Source of the DNA: a virus
Taxonomy: Duplodnaviria; Caudoviricetes
Reading direction: 5' to 3' (one strand)
DNA length: 64,000 nucleotides
IMG/VR virus record: IMGVR_UViG_3300043447_000100
Coordinates: 119,667 to 183,666 of that record
Shown here: piece after piece, positions 39,034 to 57,293 of the stretch
How positions within the stretch are numbered: position 1 is the first letter of the stretch
Layout: every line of letters starts with the position of its first letter
The notes under the pieces: model-generated
The model's input: only the letters and a program-made list of their open reading frames with translations
Databases searched by the model: none
Told to the model about the DNA's origin: nothing
Translations under genes and position numbers: made by a program

Positions 39034-39594
39034 ATGCTTATTTCAAGAAGCGTTATAACGCTATGCGTTATGCTATTCGCTACATTTTTTGTAGCATCAA
39101 ATCTAGGTCAGTCGCAGCCAATGCCACTACCACCAGTAGCCAAATTAGATATCAAGCAAGCACAATGTATTGCCACTGCTATCTACTACGAAGCACGTAA
39201 CGAACCACTAGCAGGCCAAGTAGCAGTTGCTAAAGTCATTATGAACAGAGTGCTACACAAGTTTGCTAAAGACCCATGCTCAGTTGTGTATCAACGCACA
39301 CCTATCGCAGACAGTAGTGGCAATGTTGTGGGCACCTTATGTCAATTCTCATGGGTATGTGAGAATCGTGGCCAGCCCAGCATCAAAAGCGCAAAGTATG
39401 CTCAAGCACTAGCAATCGCTACAGAAGTAATGATTACTGACAAGTGGGACAACTTACTGCCTAATAACGTGCTGTTCTTTCACGCAATCACGGCCGCACC
39501 TCAGTGGGTCTATAAGAAAGTAACAACAATCGGCAATCACGTATTCTACAGCAAAGGCCGAGAAAAGAAAGTTACTTCTGATAAGAAGGCTTGA
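39034..39594 (+). CDS. SleB-like cell-wall hydrolase (Hydrolase_2)
   Basis: CIATAIYYEARNE, VIMNRV, CQFSW, IGNHVFY; N-terminal signal/anchor. Confidence 0.9.
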   Translation: MLISRSVITLCVMLFATFFVASNLGQSQPMPLPPVAKLDIKQAQCIATAIYYEARNEPLAGQVAVAKVIMNRVLHKFAKDPCSVVYQRTPIADSSGNVVGTLCQFSWVCENRGQPSIKSAKYAQALAIATEVMITDKWDNLLPNNVLFFHAITAAPQWVYKKVTTIGNHVFYSKGREKKVTSDKKA

Positions 39595-40327
39595 AGCGTA
39601 GCAGTTTCAACACATAATACGTTACATCAATCTGCCACCACTTCTCACCAAAGTTCATTTGTGTAGGAGTAGCGTGGTGATTGTTGTGCCAACCTTCGCC
39701 CCAAACAAAGATGCCAGTCAACCAGTGATTAGTGCTTGTATCTTTGCTTTCGTGATCTTGCCAACCTACCATGTGTGATAATGTGTTGATACTGCTACCA
39801 GCATGCCACAAAATAAAGCTAGGGAACAACCATAGATATATGATAGCAAACGGGTCATAAGTCCAGCAAGCAACCGCATACAAGCCATGAACTAGCCAAT
39901 AGTTCTTGTGTAATTGTAGATGAAATTTGCTACGTAGCATATCAGGCACATATCGAACATGCGGTTCATGAAACATACTGAAGAACTGTACCTTCCACCA
40001 TGGTTGATGGTGTGGCGAGTGTGGGTCACGATCGGTGTCTGTGAAGCGATGATGCTCACGATGTACAGAGCACCACGCAATAGTGCTACCTGTACCGCCG
40101 ATGGTGCCACACAAACTACCAAAATATTCCCACCACTTAGGCGCCAAGTAACTCTTGTGACTGAGTAAGCGATGATATGTGCCACTCATGCCAATCGAGC
40201 CAGTAAAGAAGAACACGACAAACGCGGCAAGATAATGTTGCCAGCTACCCCACATCAACATAAATATCACGCTAATGTGAGTAATGATCTGGAATAATAA
40301 TAGGTAGTTTATTTTGGATGTTTTCAT
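39572..40327 (-). CDS. Membrane fatty-acid (delta-9-like) desaturase
   Basis: His boxes HRLLSH, HREHH, GEGWHNNHH; DTDRDPHSP. Confidence 0.9.
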   Translation of the reverse strand: MKTSKINYLLLFQIITHISVIFMLMWGSWQHYLAAFVVFFFTGSIGMSGTYHRLLSHKSYLAPKWWEYFGSLCGTIGGTGSTIAWCSVHREHHRFTDTDRDPHSPHHQPWWKVQFFSMFHEPHVRYVPDMLRSKFHLQLHKNYWLVHGLYAVACWTYDPFAIIYLWLFPSFILWHAGSSINTLSHMVGWQDHESKDTSTNHWLTGIFVWGEGWHNNHHATPTQMNFGEKWWQIDVTYYVLKLLRFKPSYQK

Positions 40328-40367
40328 TATCATATTTAGTTGACAACAACTAACAAGGAGTATTATA

Positions 40368-40523
40368 ATGAGTGACGGCGGTAAAGGCAGTAAGCCTAGA
40401 CCATTTTCCATTCCACAGGAAGAGTTCGGTAACAGAATTGATGCTATCTTTGGTAAGAAGCAACCACGCCCACAATGGGTACCACCACCTCTACCTGATA
40501 CCAACAAGCAAGAACAGAAATGA
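40368..40523 (+). CDS. Small hypothetical protein (51 aa, not in ORF track)
   Basis: AAGGAG RBS; MSDGGKGSKPRP...; ATGA overlap with next gene. Confidence 0.65.
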   Translation: MSDGGKGSKPRPFSIPQEEFGNRIDAIFGKKQPRPQWVPPPLPDTNKQEQK

Positions 40524-41705: not shown

Positions 41706-41911
41706 TTGACAAAAAATACTAAATAACTTACAATAGCAAACATCAAAGACAAAAGTTTGGAACAGTGTTGTAAAAATACAACAAAAAAGTTCTTGACAGG
41801 AACTCAAACTCCTGTTACACTAGAGTCTTAGATTAGTTGAAGAGAGCTTAACAACTTTTGGATAACAAAAGAAAAATAGTTCTTGACAATAAATGCTAAA
41901 TAGATTACAAT
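41706..41911 (+). promoter_or_regulatory. Three tandem sigma70 promoters driving leader and tRNA operon
   Basis: TTGACA-17-TACAAT (41706-41734), TTGACA-17-TACACT (41793-41821), TTGACA-17-TACAAT (41883-41911); palindrome at 41766-41783. Confidence 0.85.
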
Positions 41912-41967
41912 ACAACCTAGACGCTGATAATTCGGTCAGCGCCTAGTAAACTTTTAAAGAGAAAACA

Positions 41968-42147
41968 ATGAACAAACTGTCATTACACTGCCAATTTAGA
42001 ACATTGCCCCAAGCGCAGGGAACGACTTCGCTCGTATCCGGCTATTGGTCAAATGCGTCTAAATCAGCCATGGGTGCCAGCATTGCGTTTATTGGTAATG
42101 ATCGCCCAGAGCACACCACAGGGTTCTTAGAGGGAGTAACTACATAA
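41968..42147 (+). CDS. Putative attenuator leader peptide (59 aa, all 20 amino acids)
   Basis: MNKLSLHCQFRTLPQAQGTTSLVSGYWSNASKSAMGASIAFIGNDRPEHTTGFLEGVTT; 3' end overlaps antiterminator arm. Confidence 0.65.
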   Translation: MNKLSLHCQFRTLPQAQGTTSLVSGYWSNASKSAMGASIAFIGNDRPEHTTGFLEGVTT

Positions 42148-42212
42148 GTAGAATCCCTTAATCTAACAAGATACTAAGAACCCTGAGACCAAAATCTCAG
42201 GGTTTTGTTTTT
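42119..42212 (+). terminator. Mutually exclusive antiterminator/terminator
   Basis: Terminator AACCCTGAGA(42179-88)/TCTCAGGGTT(42195-204) plus T-tract; CAGGGTTCTTAG(42119-30) pairs perfectly with CTAAGAACCCTG(42174-85). Confidence 0.8.
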
Positions 42213-42249
42213 GGGCGATACGATTTTATAAAAAGTGTGAAATGAAAAA

Positions 42250-42449
42250 GGGAAACGAGGTCCCGCTCCGCACTTAAAACATGGAGCAAACGGGCGGACA
42301 GTAGGATGAAATCTGTGGCGATAACGCGGAGAGTAAAATCACTGGCTAGAGCACTGACTCTAGCATATCCTCTATTAAGTTAGAGGGTATTCTTAAACAC
42401 ATTAAGCTGACATGGGCTGAAATGCCGCAGATAGTGTGTTTGATAATAC
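42250..42449 (+). ncRNA. Structured non-coding leader of tRNA operon
   Basis: Stems GCTCC/GGAGC, GCTAGAG/CTCTAGC, CCTCTA/TAGAGG, AAACACATT/AGTGTGTTT; no ORF. Confidence 0.5.
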
Positions 42450-42450
42450 T

Positions 42451-42536
42451 GGAGTGAATGGAACAATGGTGTTCTAGCGGGCTGTAACCCCGTGGTGCTA
42501 CGGCACAGGTAGGTTCGATCCCTACTCACTCCACCA
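42451..42536 (+). tRNA. tRNA-Tyr(GTA)
   Basis: Cloverleaf, long variable arm, CCA. Confidence 0.85.
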
Positions 42537-42542
42537 CAATTT

Positions 42543-42617
42543 GGGGACAGTAGCGGGCTACGGTTCTCCCTTGCAAGGAGGATGTCTAGAAGGGTTCAAC
42601 TCCCTCGGTCTCCACCA
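42543..42617 (+). tRNA. tRNA-Ala(TGC), atypical short D-arm
   Basis: Loop CTTGCAA, G3:U70, CCA. Confidence 0.7.
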
Positions 42618-42623
42618 AGTTTA

Positions 42624-42685
42624 AGGATAGTAACAGCAACTTTATACACTAGACTTTTAATCTAACCTGTAAAAATTCTATCCTG
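42624..42685 (+). ncRNA. CAGCAA clamp RNA 1 (Lys-UUU anticodon hairpin)
   Basis: AGGATAG/CTATCCTG terminal stem, CAGCAA, TAGA-CTTTTAA-TCTA. Confidence 0.65.
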
Positions 42686-42694
42686 TTTTATAAT

Positions 42695-42771
42695 GGCTCA
42701 GTAGTTCAGTCTGGCAGAACGTCGGTCTCCAAAACCGAATGTCGGAGGTTCAAATCCTTCCTGGGTCGCCA
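42695..42771 (+). tRNA. tRNA-Trp(CCA) with U11-A24
   Basis: TCGGT-CTCCAAA-ACCGA; D-stem GTTC/GAAC; CCA. Confidence 0.92.
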
Positions 42772-42778
42772 TCTTTGT

Positions 42779-42856
42779 TGGGGTATAGCTTAGTCTGGTC
42801 TAAAGCAACGGTCTTTGAAATCGTGATCACTGGTTCGAATCCAGTTACCTCTGCCA
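42779..42856 (+). tRNA. tRNA-Gln(TTG)
   Basis: Loop CTTTGAA; CCA. Confidence 0.88.
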
Positions 42857-42865
42857 ACAATTTAT

Positions 42866-42939
42866 TCCCGCGTAGCTCAATGGCAGAGCAAAGTGCTGAT
42901 AACGCTGAGACACAAGTTCGATTCTTGTCGTGGGAACCA
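42866..42939 (+). tRNA. tRNA-Ile(GAT)
   Basis: Loop CTGATAA; CCA. Confidence 0.88.
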
Positions 42940-42944
42940 CACAT

Positions 42945-43021
42945 GCACCTATCGTCTAATTGGTTAGGACGCTAGACTTTCAATCTGGAAACGTGGGGTT
43001 CGAATCCCCCTAGGTGCACCA
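42945..43021 (+). tRNA. tRNA-Glu(TTC)
   Basis: Loop CTTTCAA; CCA. Confidence 0.88.
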
Positions 43022-43027
43022 AACAAT

Positions 43028-43103
43028 GCCACGGTAGTCCTCAGGGTAGGGCATCTGATTGTCTATCAGACTTAGGCGGGTTCGAGTCCCGTCCGTGGCG
43101 CCA
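43028..43103 (+). tRNA. tRNA-Asp(GTC)
   Basis: TCTGA-TTGTCTA-TCAGA; GCCA. Confidence 0.88.
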
Positions 43104-43259
43104 AATGTAAGATAGTTGTGTTCGCGTCCTGCAGGTAAGGGCACAACCGTATCATCACGGACGGGCGTAGTAACCGTGTAATCAAATGCGACTCAGAAAT
43201 TTTATTCCGCAGAATCCGAGCCGCGTTAAATACTTGACTTAAAGTCAAGAAAGAGAATT

Positions 43260-43664
43260 ATGTTTTCAAATAGTTTAAAGCAGGGAAATGCGGGATTGGG
43301 TCAGGCTATAGCCTATTTTACAAAGAATGGTTATGGTGTGGCATTGCCACTCACTGATAGTGAAGATTGGGACTTGATAGCGTCTAAAGACGGGATGCTA
43401 CAAAAAGTTCAAGTTAAGTCAAGTGGTCAACAGCCAGATGGGGTAGCCGCTTTTGAGATTTCAGTAAAGGGTGGTAACAATGGAAAAAATCTAACTTGTA
43501 AATATGTAGATGAACAAGATTGGGATTTATTGTTTCTATATCACATCAAGACTGAACTAACGGCATTGATACCAAAAGATAAAATCGTGTCAAAGAATTT
43601 TATTTCTTTTGGTAAACAATCAAAATACAAAGAATTTATAATTTATTCCGGTGAAGCAAACTAG
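43260..43664 (+). CDS. PD-(D/E)XK homing endonuclease inside tRNA operon
   Basis: QG..G...AIAYF, WDLI, KVQVK; AT-rich; stop codon inside downstream tRNA-Asn. Confidence 0.8.
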   Translation: MFSNSLKQGNAGLGQAIAYFTKNGYGVALPLTDSEDWDLIASKDGMLQKVQVKSSGQQPDGVAAFEISVKGGNNGKNLTCKYVDEQDWDLLFLYHIKTELTALIPKDKIVSKNFISFGKQSKYKEFIIYSGEAN

Positions 43665-43722
43665 GTGTGGGCGGAGGACTGTTAATCCTTGAAGTCAGGT
43701 TCGAATCCTGAGACCGGAGCCA
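43647..43722 (+). tRNA. tRNA-Asn(GTT), atypical D-arm
   Basis: Loop CTGTTAA; T-arm; GCCA. Confidence 0.75.
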
Positions 43723-43729
43723 AATATTT

Positions 43730-43817
43730 GCCCAGGTGGTGTAATGGTAGCCACGCCATCTTGAGGTGGTGGTACGAATAAAGTAGTGTGCGAGTTCGAG
43801 TCTCGCCCTGGGCACCA
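43730..43817 (+). tRNA. tRNA-Leu(GAG)
   Basis: Loop TTGAGGT, long variable arm, ACCA. Confidence 0.88.
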
Positions 43818-43827
43818 AAAGTTTTAT

Positions 43828-43903
43828 GGAGTTATTAGTGTAGTGGTCTGCACCGCGGGTTGTGATTCCGCTAGTATGAGTTCGATCCTCATATAACTCC
43901 CCA
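43828..43903 (+). tRNA. tRNA-His(GTG)
   Basis: G-1:C73, loop TTGTGAT. Confidence 0.88.
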
Positions 43904-43910
43904 ATTTATT

Positions 43911-43986
43911 GCCGCAGTAGCTCCAATGGTAGAGCAGAGGATTGAAAATCCTTGTGTTACTGGTTCGAGTCCAGTCTGTGGCACCA
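43911..43986 (+). tRNA. tRNA-Phe(GAA)
   Basis: Loop TTGAAAA; ACCA. Confidence 0.9.
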
Positions 43987-43992
43987 AATATC

Positions 43993-44067
43993 GCTCATAT
44001 AGTATAACGGCTATTACACTCGCTTGGTATGCGAGTGATCGCAGTTCGATTCTGCGTTTGAGCACCA
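43993..44067 (+). tRNA. tRNA-Thr(GGT)
   Basis: CTCGC-TTGGTAT-GCGAG; ACCA. Confidence 0.82.
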
Positions 44068-44072
44068 ATTAT

Positions 44073-44150
44073 GCCTCCGTAACTCAGTGGACTTAGAGTA
44101 CTTCGCTACGAACGAAGGAGTCGGGCGTTCGAATCGCTCCGGAGGCTCCA
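44073..44150 (+). tRNA. tRNA-Arg(ACG)
   Basis: CTTCG-CTACGAA-CGAAG; CCA. Confidence 0.88.
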
Positions 44151-44156
44151 CACAAC

Positions 44157-44231
44157 GGTGATATGACGTAGATGGATGCGTAGCGGTTTCATAAGCCGAC
44201 GAGAGTGGCTCGGTACCACTTATCACCACCA
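44157..44231 (+). tRNA. tRNA-CAT (Met or Ile2), atypical T-loop
   Basis: Loop TTCATAA; GGTGATA/TATCACC acceptor; T-loop CTCGGTA. Confidence 0.7.
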
Positions 44232-44237
44232 AATCAT

Positions 44238-44331
44238 GGAGAGTAATGCAGCGGGGATGGTCCTGCGACGGGCCTTGAAAACCCGGTTCTGCTTAGCGGC
44301 GGATGGGGTTCGACTCCTCTGCTCTCCGCCA
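44238..44331 (+). tRNA. tRNA-Ser(TGA)
   Basis: Loop CTTGAAA, long variable arm, GCCA. Confidence 0.82.
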
Positions 44332-44336
44332 AGTTT

Positions 44337-44452
44337 AGGATCAGTTCAGCAAATCTTAATACAAGCAGTATGTCGTGGGTTCGACCCCCACCTTCGTTCT
44401 CATGGACGATGTAGCTCAGTTGGTAGAGCGACCGCCTAAAAAGATGATCCTG
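44337..44452 (+). ncRNA. CAGCAA clamp RNA 2 (permuted tRNA module, YrlA-like order)
   Basis: AGGATCA/TGATCCTG; T-arm GTGGG-TTCGACC-CCCAC, loop-closed acceptor, then D-arm GCTC-AGTTGGTA-GAGC. Confidence 0.75.
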
Positions 44453-44466
44453 TTAGTTTGACCATT

Positions 44467-44583
44467 AGGTTCTTTTCAGCAACTTTAAATAATCTTTCTG
44501 GAAAAAAGAGGGTCCAGGTTCGAATCCTGGCAGTAGGTTGGTCACTACTGTGGTGTAATGGTAGCACGTAAAAAGAGAACCTG
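44467..44583 (+). ncRNA. CAGCAA clamp RNA 3 (fully permuted tRNA, GGA anticodon)
   Basis: AGGTTCT/AGAACCTG; TCTTT-CTGGAAA-AAAGA, T-arm CCAGG-TTCGAAT-CCTGG, CAGTAG/CTACTG acceptor, D-arm. Confidence 0.75.
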
Positions 44584-44588
44584 TTAAT

Positions 44589-44666
44589 GCCTCTATGGAC
44601 AAATTGGTAAAGTCGGCTCTCTCAAAAGGAGCAGTTCTCTCTGTTCGAATCAGAGTAGAGGCACCA
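44589..44666 (+). tRNA. tRNA-Leu(CAA) with short variable loop
   Basis: GCTCT-CTCAAAA-GGAGC; ACCA. Confidence 0.82.
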
Positions 44667-44785
44667 TATTGAAATACATTCATCATTGATCGTCGGCCTT
44701 GAGAGGTTGGTAGCCTGGACCGCACGATGAAGCAGCCTAACCAGCGCGGTGAAAAGACCCCTTACGTCGAGAGTGTGTTTCAATA
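44667..44785 (+). ncRNA. Unknown structured RNA between tRNAs
   Basis: 15-bp closing helix TATTGAAATACATTC/GAGTGTGTTTCAATA around a GC-rich core. Confidence 0.55.
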
Positions 44786-44786
44786 T

Positions 44787-44861
44787 GGTCGGTTATTTCA
44801 GCGGTAGAATATCGTATTGACATTGCGAAGGTCACTGGTTCGATCCCAGTACCGACCACCA
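44787..44861 (+). tRNA. tRNA-Val(GAC)
   Basis: Loop TTGACAT; ACCA. Confidence 0.88.
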
Positions 44862-44866
44862 AGTTT

Positions 44867-44968
44867 AGGATGAATACAGCAAACACTTTTCTGCAACCAA
44901 ACTTTCTGCAGGCTGGCCCGCTGGGGGCGTGTCGTGGGTTCGAGTCCCGGCTTAGACACATCATCCTG
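44867..44968 (+). ncRNA. CAGCAA clamp RNA 4 (T-loop module)
   Basis: AGGATGA/TCATCCTG; CAGCAA; GGG-TTCGAGT-CCC. Confidence 0.65.
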
Positions 44969-44976
44969 TTTTATAT

Positions 44977-45050
44977 GCGTGTGTAGTTTAATGGTAAAAT
45001 CAAACGTTGCCAACGTTTAGTCGAGAGTTCGATTCTCTCCACCCGCACCA
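44977..45050 (+). tRNA. tRNA-Gly(GCC)
   Basis: AAACG-TTGCCAA-CGTTT; CCA. Confidence 0.85.
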
Positions 45051-45058
45051 ATTTTTAT

Positions 45059-45132
45059 CTGGGTATATGATAGTGGCAGTCGCCGGGCCTTGGATGCCTG
45101 TAGTGGGAGTTCGATTCTTCCTACCCAGACCA
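45059..45132 (+). tRNA. tRNA-Pro(TGG)
   Basis: Loop CTTGGAT; C1:G72, ACCA. Confidence 0.85.
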
Positions 45133-45141
45133 CAATTTAAT

Positions 45142-45262
45142 CCCGCTGTCGTCTAATGGTTAGGACACTTATAAAAGGGTGACTCTGTTAAGAGTACGTT
45201 CAGCAATTTTCTTATTCCATGTTAAGGAAGGAATCTGGGTTCGAATCCCAGCAGTGGGGCCA
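45142..45262 (+). ncRNA. tRNA-Asn(GTT)-like gene interrupted by a CAGCAA element
   Basis: CCCGCTG/CAGTGGG-GCCA acceptor, D-arm, ~46-nt insert containing ACTCTG..AGAGT..CAGCAA, CC-ATGTTAA-GG, T-arm. Confidence 0.7.
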
Positions 45263-45269
45263 ATATTAT

Positions 45270-45347
45270 GTACTGATACCAGAGCGGTCTAATGGCTCGG
45301 ATTGCAAATCCGTTGTTTCGTCGGTTCGAATCCGACTCAGTACTCCA
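45270..45347 (+). tRNA. tRNA-Cys(GCA)
   Basis: Loop TTGCAAA; TCCA. Confidence 0.88.
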
Positions 45348-45353
45348 AATAAT

Positions 45354-45443
45354 GGATAGTTGCCCGAGTGGTTAAGGGAGCGGTTTGCTAAACCGTCGTT
45401 GGCGAAAGCTGGCGCATAGGTTCGAATCCTATACTATCCGCCA
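45354..45443 (+). tRNA. tRNA-Ser(GCT)
   Basis: Loop TTGCTAA, long variable arm, GCCA. Confidence 0.92.
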
Positions 45444-45920
45444 ATCAGTATCTAGTGGTATCTTTAGAATAAGCATTAAGATACTATCATCAGTAGGCTG
45501 ATAATCATGAGGTACTAAGCCATTGAATATAATTGGTCTATCTACAATAACAGTTTCTAACAGAGTTGACTTGATATCATTTAGTTCGCTCAATCTCATC
45601 CTTCTTGATGGATGTAGAGTTTCTCTAGTTCCTGAGTAACTGTAAAAGTTCATAGTCAATGAACCTTCTAGAGGAATGATAACAAGTCCGTTGTTGCCAG
45701 GACTAATATACGGCTTCACATAAGTTGATAGCCTACCTAGTTCGACATTGTGACGAGCGTGAGCAATATTAGGAAACTGTTCGAACACACTATCAACGCA
45801 ATCTTTGCCTATCAGATCATCCGTGACTTGATACAGAGATTTGATTCTAGACTTATTAGCGACACTAAATAACTCAATCAATGATTCCCTGTCATAGTGA
45901 CAGTCAACAAATTTATACAT
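45429..45920 (-). CDS. Hypothetical cupin-like protein
   Basis: IIPLEG...FNGLVPH; late motif upstream; stop lies within tRNA-Ser on opposite strand. Confidence 0.55.
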   Translation of the reverse strand: MYKFVDCHYDRESLIELFSVANKSRIKSLYQVTDDLIGKDCVDSVFEQFPNIAHARHNVELGRLSTYVKPYISPGNNGLVIIPLEGSLTMNFYSYSGTRETLHPSRRMRLSELNDIKSTLLETVIVDRPIIFNGLVPHDYQPTDDSILMLILKIPLDTDWRIV

Positions 45921-45938
45921 AGCGATATTTAGTAACTA

Positions 45939-46691
45939 ATGAAAACAGTAGGATTTTACGGCAATAGTGATTGTGCTTATAGAGGCCCAAACAGTTATAT
46001 TGACTTGTTTGCTGAAAAACACGGTCTTGAGATTGTAAACACTGGCGTTAGACAAGGAAGCGAAGAACGTATCCTATATGAACTTAAAAAGACAAAGCCT
46101 GATTTGGCAATTATATTTCATTGTGAGGCACAGTTTCTATTTTTGCCAGGTTGCGATAGAGATATCGGAATAAACAATGTCGCTGAACACAGAGGCGAAT
46201 ACTTGTTTAAGGATTGGTCTCAGGAACATACTAAATTGCATAACGAAAAATTTATCAAAAGATTTGAAACTCCTGAAAACTTTTCTAAGGCAACACAAAC
46301 TTATAGAAAATATTTCTACACGCCTGATTTACAAATGAATAGATTTTATGGCGCTCTAGTTCAGATTGATGGGTATTGCGTAACTAAGAACATACCAGTA
46401 ATTCATGTATGGCATAAATCTATACCTAGTTGGTTCAAGTTCACCAGTGGTATGGTAAATATGGATATACTAGATATATTCAAACAGTACAAAGTGCCAT
46501 CAAACATATTCAACGTAAACGGCATTACTGACGAAGGTAACGTAAAAGTTTGCGAACGATTAACGGAGTTGGTGGAGTCTATGACCCCCTCTCCAGGAAG
46601 GTTGGCAGAGAGGCTTAATGCGTCAATTTCGAAAATTGATAATCCTGATAAAGGGTTCGTGGGTTCAAATCCCACACCTTCCGCCATATGA
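45939..46691 (+). CDS. SGNH-like hypothetical protein
   Basis: GFYGNSDC, NTGVRQGS; last 30 codons run through tRNA-Ser(CGA). Confidence 0.55.
   Translation: MKTVGFYGNSDCAYRGPNSYIDLFAEKHGLEIVNTGVRQGSEERILYELKKTKPDLAIIFHCEAQFLFLPGCDRDIGINNVAEHRGEYLFKDWSQEHTKLHNEKFIKRFETPENFSKATQTYRKYFYTPDLQMNRFYGALVQIDGYCVTKNIPVIHVWHKSIPSWFKFTSGMVNMDILDIFKQYKVPSNIFNVNGITDEGNVKVCERLTELVESMTPSPGRLAERLNASISKIDNPDKGFVGSNPTPSAI
46596..46686 (+). tRNA. tRNA-Ser(CGA)
   Basis: TCAAT-TTCGAAA-ATTGA, long variable arm, GCCA. Confidence 0.88.
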
Positions 46692-47320
46692 TTACATTTG
46701 AAGATTGTTTATTAGAAATACCAGAACTAACTTATGATAGAACGAAGTTAGTAGAGGTGTTTGAACAAACAAAAGACTATGCTAGAGTAAAGTCTTTGCC
46801 ATGGGCCAATCCGGCGCTAAACGCAGTTGAAACTGCCAAAAACGTTGTGATTCAAAGTCACGACTACATGATGATGAAGGAAGATGAGCGTGGCAAAGGC
46901 ATTAACCTGCTAGACTTTCCATACATTCGAGAATTAGTTGATCGTTTAGACATTGAGATTAACGACACAAACTTAGATATCATGTGGAACAGACCAGGCT
47001 TTAAATTCTGGCCACACGTAGATAAATGGGCCGCATCAGTATTTGTTTGGCCGATCTTAGCAGACGGTGAGTTCAATCCCATTGACTTTTATAACTACGA
47101 TGGCGAGATAGTATTAGGGCGAGAGTATCGTCAATTAACAGAGAAAGATATAGCACTAACGCACAACTATAGTGACAAACATGCTACAGTATTCAACAGT
47201 CACTTAATACATGGTGTGCGCACGGTAAAGAATCATCGTGTGTTCCTTAGATTGAGAACCAACGAAGAATTCAGTTCTATTAGAACTCGTTATCTTAGTA
47301 AAAAATTGATTTTAATATAA
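46688..47320 (+). CDS. 2OG-Fe(II) oxygenase/cupin-like protein
   Basis: PHVD...IHGV...R facial triad pattern. Confidence 0.6.
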   Translation: MITFEDCLLEIPELTYDRTKLVEVFEQTKDYARVKSLPWANPALNAVETAKNVVIQSHDYMMMKEDERGKGINLLDFPYIRELVDRLDIEINDTNLDIMWNRPGFKFWPHVDKWAASVFVWPILADGEFNPIDFYNYDGEIVLGREYRQLTEKDIALTHNYSDKHATVFNSHLIHGVRTVKNHRVFLRLRTNEEFSSIRTRYLSKKLILI

Positions 47321-48280
47321 ATCAATCTCGGCAACAGCAGTTTTACCGCCAAAGCCAAGATTAGTTTTTAGCATCTTGGTGTATGTGAATGAGGTTGATT
47401 CAGTAATGATACGACTATCAGTGGCTATCTTTTCTCCAACTATCTTGTTGGGAAGTAAAATATTGTTTCGCTTACCATCTAGTGTCATAGCAAGTTCAAC
47501 AGCGCCACTAGCGCACATACAGTGTCCTAGATAACCTTTGTATCCTACAATAGGAATATTGTTCTTAATAACTCGATTGAAGTATTCATACTCGGTCCGA
47601 TCACCTACTGGAGTACCAGTAGCATGAGCGTTCCACAGTTCAATCTTATCATAATTGATGCCAGTGATGTTATTGACAATATCATCAACCGCGCCAGGAC
47701 TAGCAACTAAACTACTGTTAGTATAAAACGCATATTGTTGAACGACTGCTATAGGTGATAGAATGTGTTTTACTGTTGTTGCTTTGATTAGATATGCCGC
47801 AATACCTGTGCCCATTTTGAAACCTCGTGATGACGAGTCAAATGGCAAACCGCTATCTTGATCAAGCGCACCAAAACTATTGAAATGCCAGTGCCAGTAT
47901 GCGCTATTAACATCATCAGCGCAAACTACAATAGCAGGTCTGCCAGTAGCACTACTTAATAAGGTAGCAGTATAGAGTGCGTATAAGGAACTAGCACATG
48001 CCGCTTGAACATTTAAGATTTGACTGTTAATGCCTAGTAGAGCGCCAACGTGACTTACTAAGCCATCAACTGCGATATTGCGTAATTCACTGGGTTTGCC
48101 ACGTCGGCGGCCACCTAGATAGTCTTGCCATACACTTTCATCATCACGCTTTAGACCGTGTAGAGTTGAGATTACTAATGGGTAATCTGATTCAATATGT
48201 TGAGTGAATGAGGAATCGTTGAGTATAGATTCTAAGTCCCAAGTGGTAGTCCAACGATAGTCGAGAATTTCTGTAATCAT
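47312..48280 (-). CDS. Beta-ketoacyl-ACP synthase-like (FabB/FabF), shortened N-terminus
   Basis: AACASS, NAHATGTPVGD, KGYLGH, NLGFGG. Confidence 0.85.
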   Translation of the reverse strand: MITEILDYRWTTTWDLESILNDSSFTQHIESDYPLVISTLHGLKRDDESVWQDYLGGRRRGKPSELRNIAVDGLVSHVGALLGINSQILNVQAACASSLYALYTATLLSSATGRPAIVVCADDVNSAYWHWHFNSFGALDQDSGLPFDSSSRGFKMGTGIAAYLIKATTVKHILSPIAVVQQYAFYTNSSLVASPGAVDDIVNNITGINYDKIELWNAHATGTPVGDRTEYEYFNRVIKNNIPIVGYKGYLGHCMCASGAVELAMTLDGKRNNILLPNKIVGEKIATDSRIITESTSFTYTKMLKTNLGFGGKTAVAEIDLY

Positions 48281-48774
48281 TTGATGGGAGCAATATGAAA
48301 AATCTTATTCTTTCTTTCTATGATGGCCTTAGATGCAGAAGTATAACATGGACCACCCAATTTCTTATCGCATCCAGTTGGATTTCCATAACAGGCTCCA
48401 GTTTGACAGTTAGTATGAACTTTAATTACATTACCGTCATGATTTAATATATTAAACTCTCCTGTTATCTGATTGCCTGTGTTCCACGCAGTTCTTTGTA
48501 ATCTAATTGAATCAGTGCTGTCGCCATAAAAATTCATAAAAATATTAATAGCATCCACTGTTTTGAAGCCGTGTATTCTCATGGTATATGTCCATAAATT
48601 TTCTTCTCTTTGAGATAGAACTTTGGTTATGTGAAATTTATCATAGTATAATAAAGAGTTTTCGAACATTTTAGAAAAAATAGAATTTAAAAAATGTTCA
48701 TATTCTTTCTCCCTAATTGTTTGAAAGAAATTTGGAGAGGAATGAATGTAAATAATTTCAAATATGAAAAACAT
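48277..48774 (-). CDS. Hypothetical protein, very AT-rich, Cys-rich C-terminus
   Basis: ORF behind minus-strand GATAAATA; ATGA overlap with ketosynthase. Confidence 0.5.
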   Translation of the reverse strand: MFFIFEIIYIHSSPNFFQTIREKEYEHFLNSIFSKMFENSLLYYDKFHITKVLSQREENLWTYTMRIHGFKTVDAINIFMNFYGDSTDSIRLQRTAWNTGNQITGEFNILNHDGNVIKVHTNCQTGACYGNPTGCDKKLGGPCYTSASKAIIERKNKIFHIAPIK

Positions 48775-48789
48775 GAAAGTATTTATCAA

Positions 48790-48862
48790 TGAAGCGGCCG
48801 GGCGAGTATCGAACTCTCATTTCTGCTTGGAAGCAGTGTTTTTCCCCTTAAACTACGGCCGC
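48790..48862 (-). pseudogene. Degenerate tRNA-Gly(TCC)
   Basis: GCGGCCG/CGGCCGC acceptor, CTGC-TTCCAA-GCAG (6-nt loop), GTTCGA T-loop, ends TTCA. Confidence 0.65.
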
Positions 48863-48863
48863 A

Positions 48864-49325
48864 CTAAACTCTATTGTCGTTATTTATGTACTTGGCGCAC
48901 CAGTCATAAAAATGTATCAACTGACAGAAGAATAGGATATCGCAAGATTGTTCCCCTCGTAGTGTAAAAGGCTCAAAGTTATATTTTGGTCTATCAGCAA
49001 TATTTAGATATCTAGAATTCTTTGGAGATTCTTGTATAGTAGTAACTGTTTTGGTTACAGGATCCCTTAATTTTTCTGATAGAGTTGCTATTTCCATATC
49101 ACGATCATATATTGTAGTGAAAACTTTTTTCACCGCAATCTCTGCGCCTTCAATAAGTTTTATTTTAAATGTAACTGGCTTACCTGGAACGCAGTAAGTT
49201 TTGTATACTACTGTACAGTTTTCTGATATAGTGTATTCCTCATCTTTGTCATTTACTTTTGTAATTTTTATGACAGCCGGGCCACTAGTCTCTAGTTCAA
49301 ATTTAACTTCTGTGTATGTGCTCAT
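48864..49325 (-). CDS. Hypothetical protein
   Basis: ATGA coupling with upstream minus-strand gene. Confidence 0.55.
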   Translation of the reverse strand: MSTYTEVKFELETSGPAVIKITKVNDKDEEYTISENCTVVYKTYCVPGKPVTFKIKLIEGAEIAVKKVFTTIYDRDMEIATLSEKLRDPVTKTVTTIQESPKNSRYLNIADRPKYNFEPFTLRGEQSCDILFFCQLIHFYDWCAKYINNDNRV

Positions 49326-50110
49326 CGCTTTTGTTCCTCGAATAACGATGGTAAATCTTTTACTTTCTTGTAAAAGTATTCTGAAATGGCATGATGTGTT
49401 TTACTACCGAACGCAAACATAGGACTTGAAAAATCATAGGGTACTTTTTTATCGAAACGATTGATGTTTAAGTCATACAACTTGATATTTTTAGCATCGC
49501 AAATTGATTTTACCGCATGATAGTTTTTGAAGAAGTTATAGTTATCGCTTTTCCAGTCAATGTATGACCAGTAATCTTCCATTGGAATATTGTTGTAGTC
49601 AGATGCTTTGATGATATTTGTGAATGTCTTACTTACAAATTCTCTTCTAGCAGAGTGTGGCCACAATAAGCATATATGACTGATTTGTGTAGGAAGAACT
49701 TGAGTTACTTTTACTAAGAATCTATGAATTGTTTCTGGACTTGCGCCGATTATGCCGCAGTTCATAACAGTAGCATCAGGAATTTTATTTTGTAATTTGG
49801 TAGCCCATAGATCATCATAGTACACGTTCATGCCGAACGTATCAGTACAACCAAGACAAAGAATAATATTGTCTTTTTCTTTGAGTTCTTCGATATTGTA
49901 GTCCCAGTTACTTCTATATCCCTGTTTGTTAAATTTGAATTCCATATCACGATACACGGAGTTCATTTTTTTAACGCAGTTTGTGTACTCTTCTGGCTTG
50001 ATATCAACCGCATGAATATCTTGATACGCATGTGGGAATTCTGCTTTAAAGTAAATATCTCTAAAGCGATCTTTACCAAGATAGTACTCTATTTTTTCTG
50101 TTTCGGTCAT
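49322..50110 (-). CDS. SGNH-like hypothetical protein
   Basis: FNKQGYRS, LGCTDTFG, NCGIIGAS, LWP..RRE. Confidence 0.6.
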   Translation of the reverse strand: MTETEKIEYYLGKDRFRDIYFKAEFPHAYQDIHAVDIKPEEYTNCVKKMNSVYRDMEFKFNKQGYRSNWDYNIEELKEKDNIILCLGCTDTFGMNVYYDDLWATKLQNKIPDATVMNCGIIGASPETIHRFLVKVTQVLPTQISHICLLWPHSARREFVSKTFTNIIKASDYNNIPMEDYWSYIDWKSDNYNFFKNYHAVKSICDAKNIKLYDLNINRFDKKVPYDFSSPMFAFGSKTHHAISEYFYKKVKDLPSLFEEQKR

Positions 50111-50153
50111 AGGCTTATTTAGTAGCACAGATTCTAGTATACTAAATATCGCT

Positions 50154-50855
50154 ATGAATAAAATATCGCCAGAAAAATTCCAAGAATTAAAACAAAGCCA
50201 GTTCTATAAGAATGGACAGTTGCGATCTACTTTTTCTGGTATACAAGTAGAAACAGTAAACGCCGCATTTGACACCATGCTAGTTGAGTCAGCGCCACCA
50301 ACCGAGTTTATATGGAAGGGCAGAAATTCAAGAGCAACTGGACTGTATTCTAATGATGTTAATGGTTTAGATAAACTTGGCGAACAAAATCCAATCAATC
50401 TACAGCATTTACATAAGGTGCTTAGTATTGAAGGCGACTATATTCCACAAGAGTTTAGAATAGAAATATGTAGACAATGGAATGAAGTTAACGAGGTCGT
50501 CAATAAAATAAAATCACAATCGTCCGCTAAGGTAGTTGCTAGTGAAATATTTCTGGTTTGTCCGGATACCAATATCGGTAAACATAGACACAAGTTTGCT
50601 AAGCAGACGCTGACATTTGGTTATAGATTTAGTACGGATTCTGACGGCAGTTATCTAATGTTGTGGCCAAATAATGAGGAACAGCATTATGAGTTTCCAC
50701 TAAGTAACAAATTTTGGTTCACCTTCAAGGATCATGCGGATCATGGCGCACAAGTAAACAGTTGGATGTTTTTCTGGTTCTTTGACTTCGATCAACATAT
50801 TGATATTCCTGAAGAAATGCCATTCGTTAAAACTGATACTAAAAATTCTTGTTGA
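50154..50855 (+). CDS. Cupin-like protein (paralogue of 41037-41675)
   Basis: HRH...DH; WFFDFDQHIDIP. Confidence 0.55.
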   Translation: MNKISPEKFQELKQSQFYKNGQLRSTFSGIQVETVNAAFDTMLVESAPPTEFIWKGRNSRATGLYSNDVNGLDKLGEQNPINLQHLHKVLSIEGDYIPQEFRIEICRQWNEVNEVVNKIKSQSSAKVVASEIFLVCPDTNIGKHRHKFAKQTLTFGYRFSTDSDGSYLMLWPNNEEQHYEFPLSNKFWFTFKDHADHGAQVNSWMFFWFFDFDQHIDIPEEMPFVKTDTKNSC

Positions 50856-50883
50856 TAAATAACACATTAGCGAGGCTTCTATC

Positions 50884-51654
50884 ATGACAGAACGATTAAC
50901 AAGAAAACAACTACCACACTACGCAAAAATCAAAATGCGTGTTGACCTTGAGCGTCTGCGCAAGTATATCATTGATAACGGCTATACTGATTATTCTCGT
51001 TTTAACGATATCAATATCAGCGAAGAGAGTGATAGCAATCAAAAAGGATTCGTGTTAGCCAATCAATTCTGTCGCAACAACTACTTTAAAGAAGAAGGCA
51101 GTCCTATGTTAGTGGGCGAAGCGTTCAAGCAACTTTACTTGACTAGCATCCCACCCGAAAAGATGAACACATCACGTGAACGTCTAGAAGAAACTAGTAA
51201 CAGTATCTTTAGTCGTCAACGTAGATTGAAGCGTGACAGTGACGTTTATGTAAACGAAGCAGATGAATACAACTACACTGAGCGTAACGAACACTATAGT
51301 GGTATGCTTGCTGAAATCTTAGACGGCTTCAAGTCGCCTAAGACTCGTGTTCGTCTAGCAGTAATCGCACCAGGCTTCACAATCAAACCTCACTTTGATT
51401 ACGACCCTAGTTATGTTACTCGCTATCACATTCCTATCTTTACTAACCCTGATGTAAAATTCGGCGCAAAGACAAAGAACGGCGATGTTGAGTATCACAT
51501 GGCGGCAGACGGTAGCGTTTACTTCTTCAATGCTGGCTTAGTACACTGGGTACACAACGGCGGCACTGAACCTAGACTACACTTGCTGATAGACACTAAC
51601 GGTCAAGACGACTTAGAAATATTAGAGGACGAAACAGAGGTAATTTATCAATGA
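50884..51654 (+). CDS. Aspartyl/asparaginyl beta-hydroxylase-like 2OG-Fe(II) oxygenase
   Basis: RVRLA..PG..IKPHFD, RYHIPI.TN, HWVHNGG..RLHL. Confidence 0.8.
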   Translation: MTERLTRKQLPHYAKIKMRVDLERLRKYIIDNGYTDYSRFNDINISEESDSNQKGFVLANQFCRNNYFKEEGSPMLVGEAFKQLYLTSIPPEKMNTSRERLEETSNSIFSRQRRLKRDSDVYVNEADEYNYTERNEHYSGMLAEILDGFKSPKTRVRLAVIAPGFTIKPHFDYDPSYVTRYHIPIFTNPDVKFGAKTKNGDVEYHMAADGSVYFFNAGLVHWVHNGGTEPRLHLLIDTNGQDDLEILEDETEVIYQ

Positions 51655-52307
51655 CAAACATTTTCAAGCACGACAACTTACGGATGATTATCTTACATCA
51701 TCTATTACTAGTTTATGGAATTTATACTTACGGTTTCAACATCTGGGTAGCATTAGGCTGTTTCATCTATACGATCATTTATAACGTCTATATCAATGGC
51801 AAACTGATTCATTTACGTATGGCTCATGGTAGATACCGAGATAATTTCTGGAACATTTTTGCTACAATCTATTCATTGTTTGCTGGTGGTACAGGTAGTC
51901 CTCTTAGCTTCTCATACATTCATCGTCAGCATCATAAGTTTGTTGACACTGAGCGTGACCCACATAGTCCAAAATACGTAGGTAAGTTGAAAGTGTGGTT
52001 CTTGATGTGGCGCTTAGGCCCAATGGAGCCAAGCTACATTAGAGATTTTATGAAGAGCAAGTTTCAGGTATGGATTCATCGCAACTGGACTAGATTACAA
52101 GTAGCAATTTTGATCGGTTTATGGCTGATCAATCCTCTTATTGTATTGATTGTTATTACGCCAACAATCGTGATGACTCTACATTATAGCGGATTTATAA
52201 ATGTGCGAGGACACTGGTACGGAGAGGTTAGAAATATTCCAGAAATCAGATTCACACAACCAGCAAGTTGGCGACACAAAGAGCATCACGATTATAAATT
52301 TGAGTAA
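51651..52307 (+). CDS. Second fatty-acid desaturase-like protein
   Basis: HLRMAH, HRQHH, DTERDPHSP, HKEHH. Confidence 0.8.
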   Translation: MTNIFKHDNLRMIILHHLLLVYGIYTYGFNIWVALGCFIYTIIYNVYINGKLIHLRMAHGRYRDNFWNIFATIYSLFAGGTGSPLSFSYIHRQHHKFVDTERDPHSPKYVGKLKVWFLMWRLGPMEPSYIRDFMKSKFQVWIHRNWTRLQVAILIGLWLINPLIVLIVITPTIVMTLHYSGFINVRGHWYGEVRNIPEIRFTQPASWRHKEHHDYKFE

Positions 52308-52350
52308 TACTTTTTACTTACTTGACAACAACTTCCCACTGTGATATACT
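52304..52350 (+). promoter_or_regulatory. Early promoter with GTAATACT box
   Basis: GTAATACTTTTTACTTAC abutting TTGACA-17-TATACT. Confidence 0.7.
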
Positions 52351-52382
52351 ATCATTAGTGGGAATTTTATTTGGAGAACAAA

Positions 52383-52892
52383 ATGTTGAACCCCTGGATT
52401 CAAAACACATCGTTAATTGATATCAAGCGTGGTACACACATGGACGCTGGTCCTAACTCCATGCTGATTCAAATTTGCGATCCGCCTGGAGACTTCCCTA
52501 CCCCTCACTATCAGTTTGCGTCAGTTCATCAGTTTCAGTTCCTCGATGTTGAGGAAACTGATCATGTGATTGACGAGGCAATGCGTTGCTCTCATGATCA
52601 GGCACGTAGTTTAGTGCTTTTGCTCAAGCAAGCGTTTGCTAACAGAACTAACGTAATTGTTCACTGTCACGCTGGTGTTTGTCGTAGTGGCGCTGTTTGT
52701 GAAGTTGGCGTTATGCTGGGCTTCCGTGATACAGAAGTGTTCCGTAGTCCTAACTTGTTAGTCAAGCATCGTATGATGCGGGCACTCGGTTGGACTTATG
52801 ACGAGAATGAGCCACATACTATCAACGGGCAACAATACGAATATAGCAACGGCGGAATAATTCTGCCACCTACACACGAAGGTGATATTTAA
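52383..52892 (+). CDS. Cys-dependent (PTP/DSP-fold) phosphatase
   Basis: VHCHAGVCRS CX5R motif. Confidence 0.85.
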   Translation: MLNPWIQNTSLIDIKRGTHMDAGPNSMLIQICDPPGDFPTPHYQFASVHQFQFLDVEETDHVIDEAMRCSHDQARSLVLLLKQAFANRTNVIVHCHAGVCRSGAVCEVGVMLGFRDTEVFRSPNLLVKHRMMRALGWTYDENEPHTINGQQYEYSNGGIILPPTHEGDI

Positions 52893-53371
52893 TGAAGAAC
52901 AAGTGTTATGTATTAGTAGGCGTTCCTGGTAGCGGCAAGAGTACTTGGATCAAGAATCAAGATTGGGCTAAGGATATCCCTGTTGTATCTACTGACAACT
53001 TTGTAGAAGCACACGCCAAGGAAGTAGGCAAGACTTACTCGGAAGTGTTTGATAGTTATATGAAGGTAGCAGTCAGATTGATGGCTAACCAAGCCTTGGT
53101 ATGTCAAGCTAACAAGCTGGACATTATCTGGGACCAAACTTCAACTACAATCGGCGCCCGTCGTAAGAAGTTCAACACCCTGTTGAACGATCAATATGAC
53201 TTTATCGCTGTGGTGTTCAAGACGCCTGCTACCGAAGAATTGAAGCGCCGTTTAGATTCACGCCCTGGTAAGACAATTCCATGGCACGTTGTATCACAAA
53301 TGGCGGCTCAGTTAGAAGCAGAGCCACCAACAGAAGCGGAAGGCTTCAAGGAAATTTGGTATGCGGCCTGA
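52892..53371 (+). CDS. Polynucleotide kinase-like P-loop kinase
   Basis: GVPGSGKSTW, VSTD, IWDQT, R...R lid. Confidence 0.8.
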   Translation: MKNKCYVLVGVPGSGKSTWIKNQDWAKDIPVVSTDNFVEAHAKEVGKTYSEVFDSYMKVAVRLMANQALVCQANKLDIIWDQTSTTIGARRKKFNTLLNDQYDFIAVVFKTPATEELKRRLDSRPGKTIPWHVVSQMAAQLEAEPPTEAEGFKEIWYAA

Positions 53372-54023
53372 GGGTCTCGGATACTAAGTTAAGATGCTCT
53401 AGGGATAATGTCTCAGTAAACCCGTCTGGGCAAATATCCTTAGAGACAAAGCTACCTCCGAAGTTAGTCTTAATAGACTTCTCCCATTCGTATGCTTCCC
53501 TACCAGTAGAAAATAATTTAGTTGCGATGACCTCATAATCGCCATTCTTACGATGACCATAAAGTCTCCCTTGTAGATTACTTGATATTCCGTATTTGAT
53601 AAAACTATCGAATTTAAGTAGATAGCCGTGTGAGGGTAGATTCCATTTAAAGATATGTTCTACACAAGCCGGGCAGCCACCGCCGCGTAGAATTCTATTA
53701 GAGTTTGATAGCCATTCATAACCGCAGATATGCTTGAATAAAGTATTACTCTTAGCGTTTGTATAATCGCCTATGAGTTCAATTCCTCTATCTGCTATCT
53801 CTAAGTTAATTGATTCCTTGGTACGACGGGTACTATCTATAACGCAAGTTGGACAACCAACGCCGTTAAAAATTCTATTTGGTGTAGAAGTAAAATTATG
53901 GTTGTTCGAGCATTTAAATGAAGTCTTCGTCAATGATCCTAAGTATTCTCCAGTAATTGAGATACCATTGTCCAATGATTTAAGTTTATTAACGACAGAT
54001 GAATGAGTTAGCTTGGCGCCCAT
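53346..54023 (-). CDS. Homing-endonuclease-like protein (zinc ribbons plus GIY-YIG-like domain)
   Basis: Two C..H..GCP.C repeats; YLL..IKYGIS..R..E. Confidence 0.7.
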   Translation of the reverse strand: MGAKLTHSSVVNKLKSLDNGISITGEYLGSLTKTSFKCSNNHNFTSTPNRIFNGVGCPTCVIDSTRRTKESINLEIADRGIELIGDYTNAKSNTLFKHICGYEWLSNSNRILRGGGCPACVEHIFKWNLPSHGYLLKFDSFIKYGISSNLQGRLYGHRKNGDYEVIATKLFSTGREAYEWEKSIKTNFGGSFVSKDICPDGFTETLSLEHLNLVSETLRPHTKFP

Positions 54024-54105
54024 AGATATATTATATCATATTTATGATGTTTTGGCAATTAAAATGGTAATAATTAAAAACACTAAATAGATTTAGGAGA
54101 ACAAT

Positions 54106-54777
54106 ATGAAACGAGTAATTGAGATTAGAGCCGCAGAAGGCGGAGAGGATAGTAAGTTGTTTGTGCGTGACTTAGCAAACGCATATAAGAAGTTTGCTGA
54201 GCGTAAAAGCTGAGCAGTTCGCCTGATAAATGAGTATCTTGGCGAAGTTCACTTAGAAGTTCAAGGTACTGATTTATCCGGCTTAGAAAATGAAGCCGGT
54301 GGACACCGTATTCAACGTGTCCCGCCCACAGAGCGTAAGGGCCGTGTACATACAAGCACAGTCACAGTCGCAATCGTGGACCCTAGTGTGCCTCAGTTCA
54401 CACTCAACGAACGAGATTTGAAGATTGAGTGGTACAGCGGCACAGGTGCCGGCGGTCAACACCGCAACAAGCATCAAAACAGTTGTAGACTGACACACGT
54501 GCCGTCAGGTACGATAGTCACCGCACAGTGTCGTAGTCGTGAAAACAGTTATGCTCAAGCCCTGACTGATTTATCCAAAAAGGTTGTAGAGAACCTACAA
54601 TCAGTGTATAATAGCAAGGTAAGCAAAGATAGACAAAAGCAAGTCGGCTCTGGTATGAGAGGCGACAAAATAAGGACTTATCGTTTTCAAGACGATAAGG
54701 TTCAAGATCACAGGTCAATGAACGAAGCCAGCGTGAAAAAAGTATTAAGCGGCAACTTCGACTTATTATGGAAATAA
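54106..54777 (+). CDS. Class I peptide release factor-like protein (RF1-type PxT, no domain 1) with in-frame UGA at codon 36
   Basis: IEIRAAEGG..AERKS*AV..EAGGHRIQRVPPTE..GRVHTS..GAGGQHRNK..IRTY in one frame from ATG 54106 (AGGAG RBS); TGA at 54211-54213. Confidence 0.85.
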
Positions 54778-54778
54778 A

Positions 54779-54994
54779 ATGTATAAAGTAAAATGGAAAG
54801 ACAAATACGGTATCGATAGAGTTCATAATTGTATGTCACTCGCTGATGCCCTAGAATATAACAAGACAGTAAACAGACCAGGCACCTTAATCATAGGTGA
54901 AGGTATCGAGATAGTTGGCTCCATGGGAGTTGACTCAATCAAAGACGGACTATGCCCAGACGGTGTAGAATATAGTTGGAGAAAAAGACGATGA
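54779..54994 (+). CDS. Hypothetical protein
   Basis: Coupled ORF ending CPDGVEYSWRKRR. Confidence 0.6.
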   Translation: MYKVKWKDKYGIDRVHNCMSLADALEYNKTVNRPGTLIIGEGIEIVGSMGVDSIKDGLCPDGVEYSWRKRR

Positions 54995-55536: not shown

Positions 55537-55551
55537 GATAAATACTCTATT

Positions 55552-56703: not shown

Positions 56704-56746
56704 TACTAAAGTAGTACTTGACAATAAATCAGCCTCCTGATACAAT
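56700..56746 (+). promoter_or_regulatory. Early promoter with GTAATACT palindrome
   Basis: GTAATACTAAAGTAGTAC abutting TTGACA-17-TACAAT. Confidence 0.75.
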
Positions 56747-56777
56747 ATCTACTTAGATAGTTGATAAGGAGATTGAA

Positions 56778-57284: not shown

Positions 57285-57293
57285 GAGTCTATT

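Follow-up and report, generated by a model that had tools for sequence, protein, structure and literature searches.

The reason why phages carry tRNA genes is debated, with codon matching, compensation for the loss of host tRNAs and escape from tRNA-targeting defences all under discussion, and to our knowledge almost nothing is known of how the expression of these genes is controlled. In the attenuators of amino-acid operons (trpL, hisL, leuL, thrL, pheL and ilvL), a stalled ribosome leads to read-through. T-box riboswitches answer tRNA status through terminator/antiterminator control as well, and do so by binding uncharged tRNA directly with no need for an ORF. In Pseudomonas aeruginosa, complete translation of the PA5471.1 leader of armZ leads to a 3:4 terminator, and ribosome stalling (by antibiotics or in a mutant of cca, the tRNA CCA-adding enzyme) leads to read-through; this leader is very short and its response depends on few codons (Q3 and F4) (PMC13041342). 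For Sinorhizobium, two reports describe a terminated leader transcript (rnTrpL) and a leader peptide (peTrpL) with functions of their own (PMC6614838, PMC7968998).

The locus described here lies in a 64-kb stretch of DNA (the window) that forms the 3' end of a 183.7-kb IMG/VR virus record. This record was estimated to be about half complete, and thus its source is probably a very large phage. A close relative was absent from 50,697 GenBank phage records; DNA and tblastn searches of GenBank phages matched tRNA genes only and detected neither the leader nor the gene upstream of it. The comparison material consisted throughout of metagenomic contigs, from which protein and DNA searches recovered 19 loci that together contain 13 distinct versions of the leader unit. 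These versions were grouped into a main type (peptides 75-96% identical), L001/L020, L021, L022 and a short L015 type, with peptide identities of 35-45% between lineages, including the L015 type compared to the window. At one locus (L019), the conserved RNA found downstream of the leader lies at the contig end and the upstream sequence is missing. A second copy of the leader was searched for in the genome and none was found. All 13 versions have a common order of sigma70 promoter, ORF, antiterminator and terminator.

The first-pass annotation of the window had claimed three sigma70 promoters, a 59-codon ORF at 41968-42147, an intrinsic terminator after this ORF and 22 tRNA genes after the terminator, and each of these elements was recovered, all on the + strand. 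The promoters are near-consensus and start at 41706, 41793 and 41883. P1 (41706-41734, TTGACA-17-TACAAT, 11 of 12 matches) is kept in L001, L006 and L009, and P2 (41793-41821, TTGACA-17-TACACT, 10 of 12 matches plus a TG) is also kept in relatives. P3 (41883-41911, TTGACA-17-TACAAT, 11 of 12 matches) is nearest to the leader and was found in every main-type relative, with one equivalent promoter in L015. When the + strand from 41911 to 52322 was examined for a further consensus sigma70 promoter, none was present; thus, early transcription of the array must cross the terminator.

The predicted transcript begins with a stem-loop (41917-41946) that has a conserved loop, ATAATTC(G/T)GT, and a stem in which 7 of 10 pairs show at least one two-sided change across relatives. 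This stem-loop is missing in L015 and L022, and may serve for binding or for stabilisation. Its assignment to the Rfam family freshwater-2 was rejected, based on a score of 16 bits compared to a gathering threshold of 49.9 and no repeat of the match in seven relatives. The leader ATG at 41968 is located 57 nt 3' of the P3 -10 box and is preceded at a distance of 6 nt by a weak Shine-Dalgarno-like AAAGAG (41956-41961), which is unchanged in the main-type relatives and L001. Weak AAGGA-like sites are the general pattern in genes of this phage.

The leader ORF (59 codons plus a TAA stop at 42145-42147) was examined for evidence of coding. Its frame is the only one open in all 13 variants, with stops in nearly all variants for each of the other five frames (26-60 stops per frame when summed over variants). 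Across indels, in-frame blocks are retained that include the start M-x-K/H, a W, S-x-M, GND-R, a P and GFL-G. Synonymous encoding was also detected, as 11 of 38 identical residues of L001 and L020 are specified by different codons. Values of dN/dS were mostly 0.2-0.6, with some pairs near 1. Taken together, the dN/dS values, in-frame blocks and synonymous changes are what marks a frame that is translated and weakly to moderately constrained, and the leader ORF is likely translated. Some purifying selection acts on the peptide, and thus this is not a pure 'any sequence' leader; the same selection suggests that the peptide may have a function of its own. Profile searches of the 59-aa product against Pfam and PHROGs gave no matches, and its homologues were metagenomic ORFs only. 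AlphaFold2, run on a 10-sequence alignment, predicted no secondary structure (pLDDT 47.6); this outcome fits an unfolded peptide and is weak evidence given the shallow alignment. The N-terminal two thirds of the peptide are 35-45% identical between lineages.

Downstream of the ORF, the intrinsic terminator (42177-42212, TTTTGTTTTT) is composed of a 12-bp stem with a 6-nt loop (stem-loop 42177-42206) followed by a T-run to 42212. It is conserved in the relatives, with changes in the upper stem. A competing antiterminator is formed by region 2 (42119-42130, within ORF codons 51-55) and region 3 (42174-42185). The two regions had been noted as an exact 12-nt complement and this was borne out; when the upstream 200 nt were shuffled 5000 times, a complement of 12 nt was reached once. 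The description of region 2 as the last codons of the ORF did not hold, as five more codons precede the TAA. The reading frame across the 12-mer is ACA GGG TTC TTA GAG, in which the TAG at 42128-42130 is not read as a codon. Between the two regions are an inner hairpin (42131-42158, AGGGA..CTAC-ATAA-GTAG..TCCCT) with the stop codon in its loop and a small hairpin, ATCT-AACA-AGAT (42161-42172). The AGGGA/TCCCT and CTAC/GTAG pairs claimed for the inner hairpin both enclose the stop codon, in agreement with the first reading. Nine nucleotides of region 3 also belong to the terminator 5' arm, and thus the two forms are mutually exclusive. The antiterminator is transcribed before the terminator and, therefore, should form by default.

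Folding for both conformers had been proposed as a check and, when performed, yielded the terminator form and the antiterminator form. The stretch 42100-42215 folded into the terminator form (-39.7 kcal/mol, z = -4.9), and the whole transcript from the P3 start folded into a long hairpin that corresponds to the antiterminator (z = -5.1 compared to shuffles). For the window, the antiterminator was calculated at -29 kcal/mol (region 4 absent) and the terminator conformer at -24 kcal/mol (region 2 blocked). Across variants, the antiterminator ranged from -19 to -33 kcal/mol and the terminator conformer with region 2 blocked from -15 to -29 kcal/mol in ten variants, or from -20 to -36 kcal/mol over all 13. 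Thus, the antiterminator and terminator are of similar energy in the 13 variants. At full length, the window, L006, L008 and L015 have the antiterminator as their minimum-energy fold, and the remaining variants have the terminator.

The position of the stop codon within this structure is retained through extensive replacement of sequence. It was found inside the antiterminator in 13 of 13 variants, enclosed by 17-30 pairs, with L015 enclosing it by 6 pairs plus the inner hairpin. For the inner hairpin itself, at least four unrelated sequences were found (the window type, a GAGAAGATTCC type, an AGATTAC/GTAATCT type and a GTTACT/AGTAAC type), with the stop in the loop of each. The L015 region 2/3 pair is different (GGGTCC/GGACCC), and it again overlaps the terminator arm of its own unit. 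In L001, the helix carries a compensatory change of C:G to T:A. The region 2:3 helix does not vary at most of its pairs; as region 2 encodes G-F-L-E-G and region 3 is mostly terminator stem, conservation alone is weaker proof here than it would seem. In six of nine aligned variants, one region 2:3 pair is lost through a synonymous change of TTA to CTA, and in the variants with this change region 2 is also able to form a small local hairpin. In many relatives, a 6-bp local hairpin (GUUCCU/AGGAGC) is able to hold region 2. Helices predicted within the ORF showed almost no covariation and were missing from L001. Across variants, region 3 starts 19-27 nt past the stop codon, which places it beyond the footprint of a terminating ribosome, such that the terminator could still form. 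No upstream 1:2 anti-antiterminator or pause hairpin of the trp type was evident in the window.

At the 3' ends of the leaders, the module composed of the inner hairpin and C-terminal tail was found swapped between lineages, with an L001-type tail (..GEKIPRV) in the main-type L006 and a window-type tail (..GETT) in the L001-type L020; these swaps point to recombination inside the attenuator.

The first element beyond the terminator, and thus the first to be gated by it, is a conserved structured RNA (42226-42450) that ends at the 5' end of tRNA-Tyr. This RNA of approximately 210-250 nt was found in the window, L001, L004, L006, L009, L012, L015, L018, L020, L021 and L022 and is better conserved than the leader itself. 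Its two 5' hairpins show compensatory changes (GGGA/TCCC to GAGA/TCTC in one case; GCTCC/GGAGC to ACTCC/GGAGT and GCAAC/GTTGT in the other). The stretches AAACGGGCGGAC and GGATGAA are invariant, as is the hairpin loop GGCGATAAC on a freely covarying stem, and a long closing stem adjoins the 5' end of the tRNA. A search of GTDB genomes with this downstream RNA gave no matches. Rfam 15 gave sub-threshold hits only for the leader and downstream RNA, including rnk_leader at 17 bits compared to a gathering threshold of 50, which was not repeated in relatives.

The tRNA array (42451-46686) is composed of 20 tRNAs detected by ARAGORN and 2 by Rfam. In the relatives, the conserved RNA and tRNAs are always 3' of the leader unit, with an inserted gene between them in two loci. 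The upstream neighbours vary by locus, on either strand, and include genes for radical SAM/SPASM, TauD, Asp/Arg hydroxylase and desaturase proteins. Thus, the leader unit keeps to the tRNA array and has no fixed protein neighbour. FA_desaturase, Asp_Arg_Hydrox, TauD and radical SAM/SPASM genes adjoin the leader in relatives, and an ORF on the - strand of the window (39572-40507) displays the histidine boxes of a membrane fatty-acid desaturase when its translation is inspected by eye. Insertions in and around the tRNA arrays look mobile. A T5orf172 gene is inserted straight after the leader terminator of L005 (3342-4022), a promoter plus a 62-aa ORF occupies the same position in L022 (603-791), and an ORF for a PD-(D/E)XK endonuclease (PF11645, phrog_5018) is found within the window array (43260-43664).

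The window has a second tRNA cluster (61921-63430) with tandem consensus promoters at 62480 and 62570. The approximately 440 nt that precede its tRNA-Leu (63051) contain no ORF of more than 41 aa, no terminator and no Rfam match. The attenuator design is thus not general in this phage, and this 440-nt stretch may be another long structured leader or RNA.

From the elements of the leader unit, their mutual exclusivity, their energies and their conservation, we infer that the ORF is translated and that its translation controls termination. The unit would be a ribosome-mediated transcription attenuator, in which full translation leads to termination and lagging ribosomes lead to read-through; we place the probability of this reading at roughly 0.55. 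By this model, host RNA polymerase would start at P1-P3, and the last ten codons of the ORF and its stop would be held in the antiterminator by pairing of regions 2 and 3 around the inner hairpin. With the antiterminator formed by default, the polymerase would read through. A ribosome close behind the polymerase would reach the end of the ORF and melt the antiterminator, which would free region 3 for the terminator and end the transcript at 42212. A ribosome that lagged or stalled in the first ~45 codons would leave the antiterminator intact, and the conserved RNA and tRNAs would be transcribed. Output would thus rise when elongation is slow. The leader ORF is four times longer than classical leaders, and at this length ribosome-polymerase coupling would be needed over 180 nt for termination.

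The composition of the leader was also analyzed. The first-pass claims that the window ORF contains all 20 amino acids and 39 distinct codons, that 26 of its first 27 codons are distinct and that four Thr, four Gly, five Ser and four Leu codons are used were all reproduced. Codon runs for any one amino acid were not found. Compared to a simulation under phage codon usage, the 39 distinct codons exceed the mean of 32.5 (sd 2.5, P(>=39) = 0.007), and 0.5% of the real 59-codon windows of phage genes have at least 39. The leader also has 13 rare codons compared to a mean of 3.65 in phage genes, and the chance that all 20 amino acids would be present under phage codon usage is 0.03. By contrast, open and unbiased random sequence of the same base composition, generated by mononucleotide shuffles, averages 38.2 distinct codons (P = 0.45) and has all 20 amino acids with P = 0.15. 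The proposed simulation thus gave a divided answer, with the leader an outlier among phage genes and within the range of unbiased sequence, and exceptional codon diversity of the window alone was dropped as a claim, since it amounts to an absence of codon bias. Codon bias in the whole record is very strong (family shares of 1% for GGG, 1% for CGG, 2% for AGG, 3% for TCC, 4% for CTG and 5% for GGA), and Cys makes up 0.6% of its residues.

Amino-acid completeness is more telling than codon diversity. All 20 amino acids were found in 12 of 13 versions, which are all versions of 53-61 codons, with 16 amino acids in the 35-codon version of L015. These relatives use 35-44 distinct codons in 53-61 and exceed the uniform expectation by a mean z of +1.4, with individual significance for some only. 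Rare residues are kept by presence and are free in position, as exemplified by Cys, which is residue 8 of the main type, residue 21 of L001 and residue 33 of L022 and is found in L005 at the C-terminus only. When residues identical to the window were fixed and all others were drawn anew from three backgrounds, the probability of all 20 amino acids was 0.09-0.39 for L005, 0.05-0.10 for L001, 0.18-0.31 for L021 and 0.04-0.25 for L022, and the joint chance by this conditional redraw, which is not phylogenetically rigorous, was about 2e-3 to 6e-5. That completeness is kept at 35-45% identity argues that the all-amino-acid property is selected. A leader of conserved length and codon diversity with poor amino-acid conservation had been proposed as a test in relatives; in these, the ORF and complementarity are kept at 35-45% identity, the peptide is under some purifying selection and L015 is of only 35 codons.

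The match of the leader codons to the tRNAs of the phage was also examined. The record has 27-28 tRNAs and no tRNA-Lys, and is incomplete. Phage tRNAs could read 78% of leader codons compared to 83% for phage genes, and the codons unreadable by the tRNAs of the record include Lys, several Ser, GGA/GGG, CCC and GCC. A leader matched to the phage tRNA set was thus rejected on these values from a record that is only about half complete. For the attenuator as originally proposed, the geometry stood up, being conserved in 13 relatives through sequence replacement.

These compositional data bear on a broader form of the attenuator model, in which the leader would be selected as a universal sensor that includes all 20 amino acids in an unbiased mix and is rich in rare codons, such that loss, cleavage or non-charging of any tRNA, or slow elongation in general, would stall the lead ribosome, preserve the antiterminator and turn on a near-complete set of replacement tRNAs and the conserved RNA. 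We advance this extension tentatively, as possible and clearly less probable than attenuation itself; it has some statistical support, which comes from composition. Anticodon nucleases as the trigger are a conjecture.

Other explanations of the leader unit were weighed against attenuation. The ORF could be an ordinary early gene that yields a small protein at high levels and is followed by a partly leaky terminator of its own, with the tRNAs expressed by constitutive read-through and the stop-codon hairpin serving in mRNA stability or processing, for instance as an RNase III site that parts the mRNA from the tRNA precursor. Conservation of the frame, purifying selection and the W, S-x-M, GND-R and GFL-G blocks would be expected of such a gene, three strong promoters would agree with a demand for large amounts of the product, and promoters of the same type are common on small early genes in this genome. 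However, the hairpin and the terminator exclude each other, with an overlap that is kept in L015 despite its different sequences and through the four inner hairpins, and the unit is always found with the tRNA array, whichever protein genes are next to it. The peptide also has no family or predicted fold (pLDDT of 47.6), is only 35-45% identical over its N-terminal two thirds and has 13 rare codons (compared to the mean of 3.65), unlike the expressed genes of this phage. We consider this explanation unlikely, though it is the most serious of the three.

Less probable still is that the locus is a timing device, in which the terminator would halt early transcription by host polymerase until a later phage protein or RNA factor rendered the polymerase terminator-resistant, with the ORF incidental. 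Phage early-operon terminators that are overcome by antitermination factors are known (lambda N/nut and HK022 put), and the 5' stem-loop has the covarying stem and conserved loop that a binding site would have; the site of the factor could be this stem-loop or the conserved RNA after the terminator. A timing device leaves unexplained the constant placement of the stop codon at the tip of the hairpin with which the terminator competes. Furthermore, L015 has no 5' stem-loop and yet has the ORF, antiterminator and terminator, and the known antitermination RNAs in Rfam gave no matches. Finally, the region from promoter to terminator could be a structured small RNA of ~300 nt with an incidental and untranslated frame, which would agree with the folding z of -5.1 and with a codon usage that resembles non-coding sequence. 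This we regard as very improbable, as the frame is open in 13 of 13 variants with the other frames stopped in nearly all, and it outlasts indels and ~60% amino-acid divergence with in-frame blocks and synonymous changes; the helices internal to the ORF, by contrast, barely covary and are missing from L001.

If the attenuator model is correct, this phage lineage would supply tRNAs on demand, with the array up when translation slows. The array would also be linked functionally to tRNA-repair and translation-rescue genes 10 kb away, namely those for two RNA ligases, a PNK-like kinase, an RF-1 domain protein and an HD hydrolase. By Pfam, the region 52371-60634 encodes a PTP-like phosphatase, an AAA_33 (PNK-like) kinase, an RF-1 domain protein (of which the listed ORF covers 133 aa only), a metallophosphoesterase and an HD_4 protein, as well as an RNA ligase with a PHA02142 OB domain, a NUMOD3 protein and a T4 Rnl1-type RNA ligase. 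This gene set makes it plausible that tRNA damage is a selective pressure in this phage. A peptide selected for amino-acid completeness, in place of a codon run, would add a new principle to the design of attenuators, and the leader could be used as a compact reporter of global tRNA status.

In comparison to the systems described above, the leader unit is similar to trpL, hisL, leuL, thrL, pheL and ilvL in its promoter-proximal ORF, an antiterminator that shares a strand with the terminator and the placement of the stop codon. Unlike these amino-acid-operon leaders, it has no codon runs for a single amino acid and instead includes every amino acid, most of them 1-3 times, in 53-61 codons compared to 14-32. 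It also differs from trp-type leaders in that a 1:2 anti-antiterminator was not seen in the window, and thus its untranslated state should be ON. The genes gated here are for phage RNA and tRNAs, by contrast to the biosynthetic enzymes of amino-acid operons. With T-box riboswitches the proposed system would share terminator/antiterminator control that answers tRNA status; the T-box, however, has no counterpart to the leader ORF, and the locus matched neither this nor any other Rfam family. A function of its own, as described for rnTrpL/peTrpL, would fit the purifying selection on the peptide and the three strong promoters, but a sequence relation is absent and a function in trans is unsupported here. 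The proposed logic is most like that of PA5471.1-armZ, in that a finished leader would lead to termination and any stall to read-through. Unlike this bacterial resistance regulator, the unit described here places a long, compositionally complete leader over phage tRNAs and RNA, and it is the phage setting, the gated RNA and tRNAs, the length of the leader and its compositional completeness that set it apart.
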